NCBI GenBank assembly: GCA_043800705.1
Contig: JAZDMS010000029.1
Coordinates: 1-54,810 of the forward strand
Origin: Candidatus Altiarchaeota archaeon
GTDB taxonomy: Archaea; Altiarchaeota; Altiarchaeia; IMC4; SCGC-AAA252-I15
Direction: 5' to 3'
Length of the DNA stretch: 54,810 nt
The first letter of the stretch is position 1. Each line of letters starts with the position of its first letter. A program made the position numbers and the translations under genes. Shown in pieces: positions 190-40,988 of the stretch. The notes beneath the pieces were generated by a model that was not told where the DNA came from, ran no database searches, and worked only from the letters and a program-made list of their open reading frames with translations.

Positions 190-481
190 TGAGGACTGAA
201 GTTTCCTGTTTTCAGTGTTCAGTTTTCCAGTTTTGACCGAGAACTGAGAACTGAAGTTTTCAGTTTCCAGTTTTCTGTTTTGACTGATGACTGAAGTTTC
301 CAGTTTCCTGTTTCCTGTTTTGACTGAGGACTGAAGTTTCCAGTTTCCAGTTTTCTGTTTTGACTGTAAACCGAAAACTGAGAACCGAAAACCGAGAACC
401 GAAAACCGAGAACCGAAAACCGAGAACCGAGAACTGAATACTGAAAACCGTGAACCGAAAACCGAAAACTGAAAACCGTAG
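190..481. repeat. Heptamer repeat array 1 (GAAAACY / RGTTTTC) with alternating orientation
   Basis: Degenerate tandem 7-mers. A higher-order 40-bp unit repeats at 281-320 and 321-360. Orientation switches at CTGAAG and GTTTTGAC. Confidence 0.95.
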
Positions 482-21210: not shown

Positions 21211-22184
21211 GCGAATCCGGCCTCGTCCTGCGCAACACGGCCGAAGCCGTGACCGAGGAGGAGCTCGCCGACGTATTGAAGCTGAAGAGCCCCGCCGTAT
21301 ACTGCGGCTACGAGACCTCCGGCCAGGTCCACATCGGCCACATGGTCACCGCCACCAAGCTCCTGGACCTCAAGAAGGCCGGATTCAAGGTCAAGGTGCT
21401 TTTTGCGGACGTACACACCCGCCTGAACAGGAAAGGCGACCCGGAATGGATAGAGAGGATGGTCCGGTACTGGACCGAATGCTTCAGGGGCCTCGGCCTC
21501 AAGGACGCGGAATATGTGAAAGGCTCCGACTTCCAGTTCGAGAAGGCCTACGTATCCGACGTGCTTCAGCTGGCCTTGGAGGTCACGATGAGCCGGGCCC
21601 TTCGAAGCATGCAGGAGGTGGCCAGGGACGTCGAGAACGCGAGGGTGTCGCAGGTCATCTATCCGCTGATGCAGATCGCCGACATCAAGCACCTCGGAGC
21701 CGACGTCGCCTACGGCGGCATGGAGCAGAGGAAGATCCACATGCTCGCCAGGGAGATACTCCCCGTCATAGGATACAGGAAGCCCGTATGCCTGCATACG
21801 CCGCTTCTTTGCGCCCTACAGGGGCCGGACTCGAAGATGAGCTCCAGCAGACCGGAGTCCCTGATTTCGGTGGATGAGGATGCGGCTTCCGTCAAGAAGA
21901 AGATCGGTGCGGCATACTGCCCCCAGGAGCCGGGAGTGAACCCCGTCCTCGACACATGTAAGCTCCTCCTCTTCCCAAGGTTCGATTCCCTGAAGGTCAA
22001 CAGGCCAGCCAAATACGGCGGAGACGCGGAATATGCCAACTACGAACAGTTGGAGGCCGACTACCTCGCGAAGAAGCTCCACCCAGCGGATTTGAAGAAC
22101 ATGACCGCCACACACCTCTCCGAGGTCTTGGAACCTGTCAGAAAACACCTGAAAGAGACGGGGACAGAATATCCGAAACAGTAG
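21207..22184 (+). CDS. tyrS: Tyrosyl-tRNA synthetase (archaeal type)
   Basis: YCGYETSG, HIGH, YPLMQIAD, GGMEQRKIHMLARE, KMSSS, LHPADLK. Confidence 0.95.
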   Translation: MSESGLVLRNTAEAVTEEELADVLKLKSPAVYCGYETSGQVHIGHMVTATKLLDLKKAGFKVKVLFADVHTRLNRKGDPEWIERMVRYWTECFRGLGLKDAEYVKGSDFQFEKAYVSDVLQLALEVTMSRALRSMQEVARDVENARVSQVIYPLMQIADIKHLGADVAYGGMEQRKIHMLAREILPVIGYRKPVCLHTPLLCALQGPDSKMSSSRPESLISVDEDAASVKKKIGAAYCPQEPGVNPVLDTCKLLLFPRFDSLKVNRPAKYGGDAEYANYEQLEADYLAKKLHPADLKNMTATHLSEVLEPVRKHLKETGTEYPKQ

Positions 22185-22594
22185 TTTTCGGTTCTCAGTT
22201 CACGGTTTTCGGTTCACGGTTTTCGGTTCACGGTTTTCGGTTCACGGTTTTCGGTTCACGGTTTTCGGTTCACGGTTTACGGTTTTCGGTTCACGGTTTT
22301 CAGTAAAAACAGGAAACTGGAAACTTCGGTTTTCAGTTTTCGGTTCACGGTTCTCAGTTTTCGGTTCTCAGTTTTCGGTTTACAGTCAAAACCGAAAACT
22401 GGAAACTGGAAACTTCGGTTTACAGTTCTCGGTTCTCGGTATTCAGTTCACAGTTTACAGTTCTCGGTTAAAACTGGAAACCGAAAACTGAAAACTGGAA
22501 ACTTCGGTTTACAGTTCTCGGTTAAAACTGGAAACTTCGGTTCTCGGTTTACGGTCAAAACCGAAAACAGAAAACTGGAAACTTCAGTTCTCAG
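22185..22594. repeat. Heptamer repeat array 2 (upstream of four-helix-bundle gene)
   Basis: (GGTTCAC/GGTTTTC)n alternating with (GAAAACT/GGAAACT)n. Begins at the tyrS stop codon; about 10 orientation switches at fixed junctions. Confidence 0.95.
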
Positions 22595-22661
22595 CAGTGT
22601 TTCGTGATAGTACTACCTTTCAAGTGTCTGATTCTAAAGGGGGGGTTCTTTATCAGGGAAC

Positions 22662-23024
22662 ATGGCCCAGAATTTCAAAAACCTGAATGTCTATAGGGAG
22701 GCATACGCCCTCAGCATCGAAGTCTACCGCGAGATCAAGGACTTGGACAGGCACTGGCGCCTCAAGGACCAGCTTTTCGGCTCGACTACGGCCGTCTGCA
22801 CGAATCTTGCGGAGATGGCGGCCTTCGAGAACAGGAACCAGCAGCGGCAGAAGGTAATGGTCTGCATAGGCGAATGCAATGAGACTGAATTCTGGCTCGA
22901 ATTCTGCAAGGACGCATGTCTCATCGAAGAGGACAAATTCGGGGGGTTTATGAAAAAATTAGAAAGGATACGTATGATGTTGTTCAGCCTCAAGGGTTCC
23001 ATCGAAAAAAACGCCGTTAGATAG
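22662..23024 (+). CDS. Four helix bundle protein (bAvd-like / '23S rRNA IVS protein' family)
   Basis: 120 aa; FKNLNVYREA...LKDQL..S...V.TNLAE...G.CNETEFWLE pattern of the family. Confidence 0.85.
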   Translation: MAQNFKNLNVYREAYALSIEVYREIKDLDRHWRLKDQLFGSTTAVCTNLAEMAAFENRNQQRQKVMVCIGECNETEFWLEFCKDACLIEEDKFGGFMKKLERIRMMLFSLKGSIEKNAVR

Positions 23025-23123
23025 ACTGAAAACTGGAAACTTCGGTTCTCGGTTTTCGGTTAAAACTGAAAACTGAAAACTGAACACTGAAAACTGAAAA
23101 CTGGAAACTGAAAACCGAAAACC
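23025..23123. repeat. Heptamer repeat array 3 (downstream of four-helix-bundle gene)
   Basis: Fills the whole gap between two convergent stop codons; same junctions GAAACTTCGGTT and GGTTAAAACT. Confidence 0.95.
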
Positions 23124-23124
23124 G

Positions 23125-23964
23125 CTATATCTGCGGCACTATCTTCGCCTGGTCTCCTAGGCTGGCTCCGAGTTTGTCCATCTGTTCTTTGGCTTTCCTT
23201 ACGGTTTCGAGGCAGTCGGTGGTGAGGTTCTTGTTCCTGAGGTCGGAGCATACTTGGGAGTCGACTTTTTTCTGGGCGACTTGGAGGAAGCATTCGTCCG
23301 CTGTCCTGTCTTCGCCGATGCTCTTGCACAGCCAGACGTCCGGTTTGACTGTGGCGACTTTGCCGTAGCAGTAGTCTTTGCTCTTGTTCTCCAGGAGGCG
23401 GTCGCAGTATTTTTCGTCCTTGTTTATGAGGGCGAGGCAGCGGTATTTCGTGGATTCCGAGGTTATCCGCCCGCAGGTTTCGTTGGATCTGGTGTTGAAG
23501 CCGACCTGGAAGAGGCATGTGTCCTTCTGGTCCGGGTTGCCGACGTCCGCGCACAGGGATTCGTTGCGTTGCAGGATGGCGACTTCCATGACGCATGAGC
23601 TCTTCTCTACGGGGTCCGTCACGAGGGCGCAGCCTGCTAGGTCGCCTTTTTCTGCGGCGACCCTCCTGATGCATTGCTGTCTCCAGAGGTTCATCTGGAC
23701 TTTCTGGCAGCCGTCGTAGTCCAGCTGGTTTTGGGCGTTGTTGAAGTAGCATTCGTCCCGTTTGTCTCCCGCCTCCAGCCTGGAGCAGTCGATTGCCGGG
23801 ATTGTGGTAGGCGGGGCCTCCGAGCAGGCGGCGCAGGGGCCTCCGCAGTCGACGCCCTCCTCGAGGCCGTTTTTGAGGCCGTCCTGGCAGTTGGGCTCCT
23901 CTATGCAGCCTGAAAAGGCCGCGGCAGCCATTAGGGCGGCTATTATGTAAGGCGTAAAACGCAT
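23125..23964 (-). CDS. Cys-rich repeat lipoprotein
   Basis: Signal peptide with FSGC lipobox-like end, CQDGLKNGLEEGVDCGGPC motif, ~25-aa two-Cys repeats. Confidence 0.8.
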   Translation of the reverse strand: MRFTPYIIAALMAAAAFSGCIEEPNCQDGLKNGLEEGVDCGGPCAACSEAPPTTIPAIDCSRLEAGDKRDECYFNNAQNQLDYDGCQKVQMNLWRQQCIRRVAAEKGDLAGCALVTDPVEKSSCVMEVAILQRNESLCADVGNPDQKDTCLFQVGFNTRSNETCGRITSESTKYRCLALINKDEKYCDRLLENKSKDYCYGKVATVKPDVWLCKSIGEDRTADECFLQVAQKKVDSQVCSDLRNKNLTTDCLETVRKAKEQMDKLGASLGDQAKIVPQI

Positions 23965-24019
23965 AGTCAAATATAAAGTAGGTTCCGTATAAAAACAGGA
24001 AAAATGCCGAACAATGTCC

Positions 24020-40302: not shown

Positions 40303-40475
40303 CGGTTTTCGGCCCGCGGTTTACGGTTTTCGGTTCTCGGTTTTCAGTATTCAGCTCTCGGTTCACGGTTTTCGGTTCTCAGTTCACGGTTCACGGTTTT
40401 CGGTTCTCAGTTCACGGTTTTCGGTCAAAACCGAAAACTGAAAACCGAAAACTGAAAACCGAAAACTGAAAACAG
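40303..40475. repeat. Heptamer repeat array 4 (no adjacent four-helix-bundle gene)
   Basis: (GGTTTTC/GGTTCAC/GGTTCTC)n, a single switch at GGTCAAAACC (~40423), then (GAAAACY)n abutting the stop codon at 40476. Confidence 0.95.
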
Positions 40476-40988
40476 TCAACTGAGTTCGTTCAATCCCGCG
40501 CACCTGTTCCTGAGGCTTGGGTCGGCTATCTTGTCGCATTGGCGTACCGTCATGTAGCAGTCGTCCTGGTTTTCCTCTGGGAGGTCTTTGCAGAAGGATG
40601 CGCCCTCGCCCGGGGCCGGCAATCCGCCGGAGGGTAGGCCTATGCAGTATGTGAGGCCGTGGTAGATGTTTCGTGCGTATTCTCCGGCGTGCTGTTGTAT
40701 CTGGGCGCATCTTTGGAGTTCGCTCTGGGGCAGGTGGATCTGGCCTGTTGCCGCCTTCTTGCACCGCTGATAGACGGATTCGTTCTGCCTCGCCTCCTGG
40801 CAGAGTTGTGTCCCGTTGACTGCGAGAGTCGTGGAGGTGGATGAGGGGGTGGTGGTTGCCGTCGACGTCGTCGTAGTGGAGGGTTCTGCCGGCGTTGCCG
40901 TTGTTGTGGTCGTGGTCTGGACTGTCTCCGTTTCGGTGAGGCATCCGCCCAACAAGGCGAGCATAACAATCGTTAACGCGTTTTGCAT
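40476..40988 (-). CDS. Small Cys-rich lipoprotein with Thr-rich linker
   Basis: LLGGC lipobox-like end, poly-Thr, C-terminal CKDL..QDDCY..CDKI..RNRC. Confidence 0.75.
   Translation of the reverse strand: MQNALTIVMLALLGGCLTETETVQTTTTTTATPAEPSTTTTSTATTTPSSTSTTLAVNGTQLCQEARQNESVYQRCKKAATGQIHLPQSELQRCAQIQQHAGEYARNIYHGLTYCIGLPSGGLPAPGEGASFCKDLPEENQDDCYMTVRQCDKIADPSLRNRCAGLNELS

Follow-up and report, generated by a model that had tools for sequence, protein, structure and literature searches.

The window analysed here is a stretch of 54,810 nucleotides from a Candidatus Altiarchaeota archaeon (contig JAZDMS010000029.1), and its positions 22185–23124 hold a gene for a 120-aa four-helix-bundle protein, enclosed by arrays of 7-nt repeats (heptamers) that are inverted between the two sides of the gene. 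Compared with relatives, this 940-bp block reads as one inserted genetic element. We lean somewhat towards regarding it as a selfish cassette of the intervening-sequence type, from which arm-only derivatives have arisen and whose protein would act on the arms. The analysis showed an insertion, arms that are complementary to each other, copied arm-only loci, the co-occurrence of gene and arrays among genomes, and a layout shared by bacteria and archaea. The original prediction for this locus, which was made from the letters alone, had held that the gene and the repeats belong together; the insertion relative to congeners, the co-occurrence across 61 genomes and the inverted heptamers at bacterial and other archaeal family members all agree with it.

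The distance between tyrS and the convergent gene for a Cys-rich protein of 281 aa is ~10–90 bp in the same-genus genomes G001, G002 and G004 and also in G017, against 940 bp in the window. Because the spacer is otherwise nearly empty in these relatives, the 940-bp block is best described as an insertion, and the empty tyrS 3′ site that the original prediction had proposed to look for was thus found. The left arm begins right at the tyrS stop codon, and the right arm stops at the stop codon (23125–23127) of the convergent gene. The neighbours of the inserted gene encode TyrS, the Cys-rich protein, a DUF2085 protein and GatB.

Both sides of the gene are made of one type of heptamer, a degenerate GxxAACY and its complement, whose orientation switches repeatedly. 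With a regular expression for the unit, the upstream part comprised 48 units at 22183–22592 (410 bp; successive orientations -17+2-8+3-6+4-2+1-2+2-1) and the downstream part 11 units at 23028–23123 (96 bp; +2-2+7), in line with the inverting repeats first reported around this gene. Tandem Repeats Finder (TRF) reported 6.9 copies of a period of 14 on the left (22189–22284, 96% matches) and 8.7 copies of a period of 7 on the right (23062–23122, 90% matches). The hairpin modules next to the arms turn at GGAAAC-TTCG/TTCA-GTT, which gives cUUCGg-type loops when read on the gene strand. The junction GGAAACTTCRGTT occurred six times on the plus strand of the window, always in the cassette, and in none of 100 shuffles; genome-wide it was confined to the cassette and, on the other strand, to 190–481. 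The leader ahead of the start codon may contain a promoter of its own. The block thus has an open reading frame (ORF) of the S23p family inside complementary arms, as intervening sequences have; it is inserted between tyrS and a protein gene, not in a 23S rRNA helix, and no match to rRNA was found anywhere in the window.

Table 1. Parts of the cassette and of two gene-less arrays in the window (positions of the 54,810-nt stretch)
Feature	Position	Strand	Basis
Left (T-rich) arm, 17 consecutive RGTYYNN units, mostly the 14-mer CGGTTTTCGGTTCA	22185..22301		TRF, unit regular expression, fold
Internal block, five short hairpin modules of the cassette's heptamers	22302..22592	+	Junctions at 22319, 22408, 22497, 22530, 22577
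Leader, unique 69 nt, from the repeats to the start codon	22593..22661	+	Single copy in the genome
Four-helix-bundle gene, 120 aa (PF05635/TIGR02436, variant 'AEM-type' subfamily)	22662..23024	+	ORF call, family models, structure model
3′ hairpin module of the same kind as in the 5′ block, junction at 23035	23025..23060	+	Sequence, fold, junction search
Right (A-rich) arm, ~9 GAAAACY-type units	23061..23124		TRF, regular expression; pairs with the left arm in minimum-free-energy and centroid folds
Gene-less copy of the cassette 5′ half, arm plus three hairpin modules	190..481	-	Module search, alignment
Gene-less arm pair, T-rich then A-rich	40304..40475		Between a stop codon and the ilvC promoter

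The genome to which the window belongs (G000; 2.0 Mb in 43 contigs, 87.5% complete) carries a single PF05635 gene, and the leader and the gene are single-copy in the assembly. The repeats are far more numerous: 17 array intervals were found with a strict pattern and 38 with a generalised one, corresponding to about 30 loci, all of them intergenic or at gene ends and beside unrelated housekeeping genes. The two gene-less arrays first noticed in the window, at 190–481 and 40304–40475, were recovered by TRF and by the unit regular expression. A simple T-rich then A-rich arm order was seen in 10 of the 17 strict intervals and the reverse order in none; the cassette follows this order too, its gene occupying the 'loop'. 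The reverse complement of 190–481 is colinear with the 5′ half of the cassette over ~290 bp and ends with the same last hairpin, and a module of the five-hairpin type was found nowhere else in the genome. Another array (C28:2300) resembles the right end of the cassette, including the rare unit GAACACT. Non-repeat centres are common to C12:76842 and C20:11306 and, with a different sequence, to C16:5462 and three arrays of one contig (C25:40947, 53366 and 69826). We regard the gene-less arrays as copies because independent slippage would not give the colinear 190–481 or the common non-repeat centres. Terminal inverted repeats with multiple dispersed copies are features of miniature inverted-repeat transposable elements, and dispersed, intergenic tandem 7-nt units are those of the short tandemly repeated repetitive (STRR) sequences; the family has both.

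Comparison of five array sites with the orthologous sites of relatives showed that the array begins 0–5 nt past the stop codon in all five. The ilvC site (40304–40475 in the window) is empty in the congener G003, in which the upstream gene was recovered, and the 3′ ends of a gene on contig C35, of rps3ae and of pyk carry arrays in the window's genome and none in congeners. No array was present in the congeners at the five orthologous sites wherever the site was recovered, and G001–G004 gave no match to the heptamer pattern at all. The flank on contig C28, which resembles a fructose-bisphosphate aldolase gene, had no homologue among five relatives.

Some features of the window touch on these arrays. 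The convergent gene at 23125–23970, which is conserved beside tyrS in relatives, and the gene at 40476–40988 both abut arrays; the products of both are rich in Cys, appear to be secreted and have no firm Pfam assignment. Three in-frame heptamer units (21 nt) occur inside a coding region at 2480–2500, in a gene downstream of a Na+/H+ exchanger gene, and may be a chance run or a seed. An element resembling insertion sequence IS630 occupies positions 1–175, continues into contig C37 and abuts the array at 190–481; it has two ORFs, with HTH_33/HTH_32 and DDE_3 matches (E 1.6e-23 for the latter), and TA-flanked inverted ends, and a 141-nt overlap of contigs C1 and C37 falls within it. As a mobiliser of the arrays it was rejected: its ends bear no relation to the heptamers, and it is separated from the array by ~12 nt of different sequence. 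A second copy of the gene behind it was likewise discarded, the leader and gene being single-copy.

Co-occurrence was examined in a sample of 61 genomes of the phylum. Four of them, all with a PF05635 gene, matched a strict pattern of four units, and nine matched a broader one. Arrays and gene were found together in six genomes (G000, G017, G026, G057, G059 and G060), the gene without window-type arrays in three (G008, where it lies just 3′ of the 23S rRNA; G021, with other heptamers; and G042, a weak match), and neither in 49. The one-sided Fisher test gave p = 1.1e-4 with kinship ignored, and this value overstates the association, as related genomes are not independent and six of the array-bearing genomes are in one family. 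In G026, the sole array match of the genome lies just upstream of the gene. In G021, GGGRTTA heptamers, which change over to their complement, lie on both sides of a canonical-type gene; they are also scattered over 17 of its contigs and occur in none of four other genomes tested. G021 is thus an independent replicate of the pairing between gene and heptamers. Two further loci in the phylum may be mentioned. A weak PF05635-like ORF of G026 (L006, 34.8 bits) lies between inverted heptamers of the TGCAAAA type, a third unit type in the phylum, and the canonical-type gene of G008 (L002) lies ~250 nt downstream of the archaeal 23S rRNA 3′ end and has no heptamer arms.

The same layout was met in bacteria. 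A tblastn search of 72,556 plasmids with the G021 protein gave 27 records, mostly cyanobacterial, from which 12 were taken across the ranking before their flanks were viewed; two of these loci are near-identical. By eye, inverted tandem arrays lie on both sides of the gene in all 12. With a lag score, period 7 ranked first in one flank or both at ten loci, and period 8 at two; the weakest locus, L078, scored 13 and 16 of 21. The units are unrelated to one another (GGGTGTA, GGGAACA, AGGGAAR, CAGRAGT, GGCAGRA, AAAAGCY, GGTGACA, GGACRGA and others), and the upstream and downstream arms are complementary in each case even though the units differ between lineages. Locus L085, from Azospirillum, is a true 23S rRNA intervening sequence with heptamer arms on both sides. 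Of the five period-7 arrays in two plasmids that were scanned over their full length (49.7 kb and 50 kb), four lay directly beside a stand-alone gene of the family, and the avd gene of a diversity-generating retroelement (DGR) on one of these plasmids had no heptamer flanks. Three cassettes on cyanobacterial plasmids (L080, L081 and L082) lie inside CRISPR-Cas operons in the orientation of the operon, in cas10/cmr3 and cas6/cas4 gaps. The PF05635 family is listed among CRISPR-linked genes in the available text of Altae-Tran et al. 2023 (PMC10910872), and such cassettes probably explain this association.

The family assignment of the window protein, and the Avd-type fold that had been proposed for it, were upheld. 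It matched PF05635 with 64.3 bits (E 1.4e-17; cut-off 33.8) and TIGR02436 with 64 bits (E 1.3e-17; cut-off 24). Its AlphaFold model has four helices (predicted local distance difference test score 89.8), and the nearest solved folds are those of the stand-alone members 2gsc (template-modelling score by query, TMq, 0.82–0.88; by target, TMt, 0.89–0.91) and 2rld; in the model comparison, the phage Avd structure 4dwl ranks next (TMq 0.76, TMt 0.85). The protein is thus predicted to be an up-down four-helix bundle like 2gsc and 2rld. Crystal structures of PF05635/TIGR02436 proteins have been described as homopentameric rings. The reported departures from the family motifs hold in an alignment with eight canonical members: KDQLFGS stands in place of SQIRRA, NLAEM in place of NIAEG and GECNE in place of GSLxE. 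Only L8, Y22, Q37, N48, A50, E51 and E74 are invariant across the canonical and variant types. The motif N[ILVM]AEM, present in 20 of the 150 top representatives, is a subfamily variant, and, out of 1.84 billion representatives, a profile built from ten members retrieved 10 at E ≤ 1e-30 and 121 at E ≤ 1e-10. By these comparisons the window protein is a member of a small divergent subfamily of PF05635.

We therefore consider as the better account, with modest preference, a hairpin-armed cassette akin to the 23S rRNA intervening sequences, here in the spacer between protein genes of an archaeon. The gene-less arrays would be arm-only derivatives of the cassette family, copied to new intergenic sites, each time right behind a stop codon and with the T-rich arm leading, and the four-helix-bundle protein would be the only product of the element. 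The protein may act on the period-7 arms when they are folded back as single-stranded DNA or RNA, and the arms may thereby persist or spread through host replication and repair enzymes, with no transposase. Period 7 and the complementarity of the arms are kept in bacteria and archaea, and the sequence of the unit changes freely. Because period 7 is conserved across domains and subfamilies and RNA-processing machinery is not, the protein appears to be the one shared component identified, and for this reason we take it to act on the arms; it would bind them and be needed for their spread or maintenance.

The searches for other machinery bear on this account. The statement of the original prediction that neither a reverse transcriptase nor a transposase is adjacent to the gene was borne out over ~3 kb, but it does not extend to the array at 190–481, which the IS630-like element abuts. 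In the whole 87.5%-complete genome, no match to PF00078 (reverse transcriptase), to PF01797 (Y1/HUH transposase) or to PF14622 (RNase III) was found. A DGR was accordingly rejected for want of a reverse transcriptase in the genome, and the chemistry of REP-associated tyrosine transposases (RAYT; REP, repetitive extragenic palindrome) for want of a Y1 transposase. Membership in a defence system was also set aside, PADLOC giving no match.

Several observations weigh against the cassette account. Only 10 of 58 archaeal subfamily loci had a period-7 run that was clear and lay no more than 200 nt from the gene (0–1 of 58 for other periods and 1 of 74 in shifted controls); most archaeal orthologues, 48 of the 58, thus lack clear flanking arrays. 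The archaeal count comes from a 21-nt test of 57 loci plus the window, which replaced a stricter detector (70% over 35 nt; 7 of 61 loci). It excludes L005 (the window's own locus), the duplicates L003, L011, L046, L047, L061 and L067, the near-duplicates L045 and L064, L020 and L068 with a truncated flank, and the weak match L006. Within the phylum, the co-occurrence of gene and arrays in six genomes stands beside three of 61 with arrays only (G053, seven matches; G055, 12; G056, one; all 80–87% complete), in which neither the Pfam model nor the subfamily profile detected the gene, and in the three f9 genomes that carry the gene it is not between arrays. All genomes are metagenome assemblies, where repeats are often collapsed or missing. 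The protein, unlike the basic Avd, is near neutral (isoelectric point 7.59, net charge +1); the Arg pair found in the canonical motif is lost from it, and no catalytic domain could be recognised. Empty and filled sites gave no readable target-site duplication. Finally, G017, from another genus, is a more remote relative than the congeners that lack arrays, and it nevertheless shares array positions with the window's genome at three of the five sites (its loci L072, L096 and L105 against 22185 and 40304 in the window and G000:C35:174577). A simple random-insertion model fails to explain this sharing. None of eight further mappable G017 array sites is occupied in G000, and the pattern suggests either that some sites are preferred or that insertions shared from old times were erased where the gene was lost.

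Several archaeal loci had only 3–5 units by eye, and most of the remaining ones fall into two other conserved contexts. In the Micrarchaeota and allied loci (L014, L018–L031, L035–L038 and L040), the non-coding surroundings of the gene are conserved, with one conserved GC-rich stretch upstream and another downstream; a small overlapping ORF (~25–30 aa) on the upstream side and a GGAGGTGA ribosome site are also present. Rfam had no family for this context. In the third context (L008–L010, L048–L063 and L086–L088), CACTGCTCACTGCTCAC precedes the gene and a small overlapping ORF (MYKRLIKGNWYWY...) follows it. Direct copies of an 11-mer, GTTACGCTACA or GTTACACTACA, lie at irregular spacing to either side of the pair, and the neighbours in L086 resemble, by eye, restriction-modification or abortive-infection genes.

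Three other explanations were weighed. In the first, which we consider unlikely, the element functions as RNA only: the stem of the arms insulates or excises the ORF in read-through transcripts, the solo arrays are hairpins or terminators of 3′ untranslated regions, and the protein is unrelated to the repeats. The RNA fold of 22170–23140 indeed pairs ~22203–22260 with ~23060–23123 around the gene, both in the minimum-free-energy and in the centroid structure (dG -341.9, z -8.0; 0 of 20 shuffles equally good). The complementarity applies to DNA too, and folds of the two strands (-152.7 with z -7.4 for plus, -126.1 with z -6.1 for minus) do not decide the strand. The co-orientation with both neighbours of nine of the ten annotated bacterial loci, including those in the cas gaps, the locus within 23S rRNA, and the start of solo arrays just past stop codons, with T4 runs, also fit a role in transcripts, as does the excision of the Coxiella intervening sequence by RNase III, described in the available text of Warrier et al. 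2016 (PMC4990558). This explanation, however, lacks an RNase III in the searched genome, and it leaves unexplained both the arm-only arrays that track the gene across genomes and the occurrence of period 7 in both domains. Oligo-T runs terminate archaeal transcription, and the 17 T-run units after tyrS would probably stop it before the gene.

The second, which we find rather improbable, is coincidence: the arrays would be a slippage-prone family of simple sequences or terminator hairpins, like STRR or the Xanthomonas GGGAATC repeats, near which the gene tends to land or to stay. The three genomes with arrays and no detectable gene and the 48 archaeal gene loci with no clear arrays are what it would lead one to expect, and heptamer families have been described with no link to a PF05635 protein in the available texts of Rehm et al. 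2015 (PMC4692102) and MacGregor 2015 (PMC4679880). At ~30 array loci per 2 Mb, however, we estimate that arrays on both flanks of a given gene are very unlikely, and coincidence sits poorly with the single array of G026 at its gene, with the flanked state of all 12 bacterial loci and the position of four of five arrays in the whole-plasmid scans, and with arms that are complementary each time despite lineage-specific units. The third, growth in situ, in which arrays are not transposed and protein-stimulated slippage or templated addition extends short seeds behind stop codons at the same places in relatives, could draw on the shared G017 sites, the native tyrS end (CCGAAA...), which resembles a unit, and the coding-region run at 2480–2500, but we give it little credence in view of the common centres and the colinear 290-bp copy, which speak for copying between loci, and of the eight unoccupied G017 sites.

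The cassette account, if correct, places three long-separate puzzles in one frame: the function of stand-alone S23p/four-helix-bundle proteins, the origin and movement of rRNA intervening sequences, and the excess of 7-nt repeats in some prokaryotes. The gene lies typically between inverted heptamer arrays, arrays spread without the gene, and both are gained and lost together, which leads us to offer the hypothesis that maintenance or spread of period-7 hairpin arms depends on the protein. A wider proposition, which we regard as possible but doubtful, is that stand-alone PF05635 proteins are the agents behind the heptamer families in general, among them STRR, the Xanthomonas GGGAATC family and GxxAACY. 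Gene and period-7 arms would then constitute a class of transposase-less mobile elements for which rRNA is one landing site, and the protein would measure out, stabilise or propagate hairpin arms in a 7-nt register. In genome annotation, a 'four helix bundle protein' that lies between runs of heptamers is to be read as an inserted cassette and not as a member of the surrounding operon, for example a cas operon.

Among known systems, Avd of DGRs has the same predicted fold and the same Pfam family as the window protein, but the latter is near neutral with other motifs, its genome has no reverse transcriptase, and the one DGR avd gene examined is free of heptamer flanks. REP elements and bacterial interspersed mosaic elements with their RAYT, the model for the suggestion that the gene-bearing locus is a master with non-autonomous copies, likewise combine one gene flanked by short repeats with gene-less repeats dispersed in the genome. 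The analogy stands in its logic and the copies are real, as the colinear 190–481 and the common centres indicate; it does not stand in its chemistry, since the genome lacks PF01797, the repeats are tandem heptamers instead of single palindromes, and the flanked gene encodes a PF05635 protein, a 120-aa helical bundle without a known catalytic motif and without a recombinase match (Pfam, NCBIfam and PADLOC gave the four-helix-bundle family or nothing). The dispersed heptamer families of prokaryotes (cyanobacterial STRR, Xanthomonas GGGAATC, Nostoc GGGGAYT and Beggiatoa TAACTGA), of the kind that Rehm et al. and MacGregor describe, are closer in their repeats, which are intergenic, dispersed tandem 7-mers, often in convergent inverted pairs (70 such pairs in X. 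campestris, according to the available text of PMC4692102), with a lineage-restricted distribution. The available texts of both papers name no S23 or four-helix protein, whereas the arrays of the window bracket a PF05635 gene and co-occur with it, and no paper linking this family to heptamer arrays in general turned up in the literature searches.

The closest likeness is to the 23S rRNA intervening sequences of Leptospira, Coxiella and others. According to the available text of PMC4990558, the Coxiella intervening sequence is selfish and carries inverted repeats and an S23p ORF, upstream of which lie two to three tandem GACAGAT heptamers, in a number that varies by strain; the same text cites Ralph and McClelland 1993 for the proposal that intervening sequences are selfish or mobile and that the ORF possibly aids their mobility. 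The element of the window differs from them in lying outside rRNA, between tyrS and a protein gene; in its archaeal host, in whose genome, as assembled, RNase III was not found; in its arms of ~120 and ~60 bp of heptamers with extra hairpin modules; in the arm-only copies dispersed in the genome; and in a protein of a divergent subfamily. It resembles them in its PF05635 ORF, in the inverted-repeat arms that enclose it, in the long stem that these arms are predicted to form and in its sporadic distribution.

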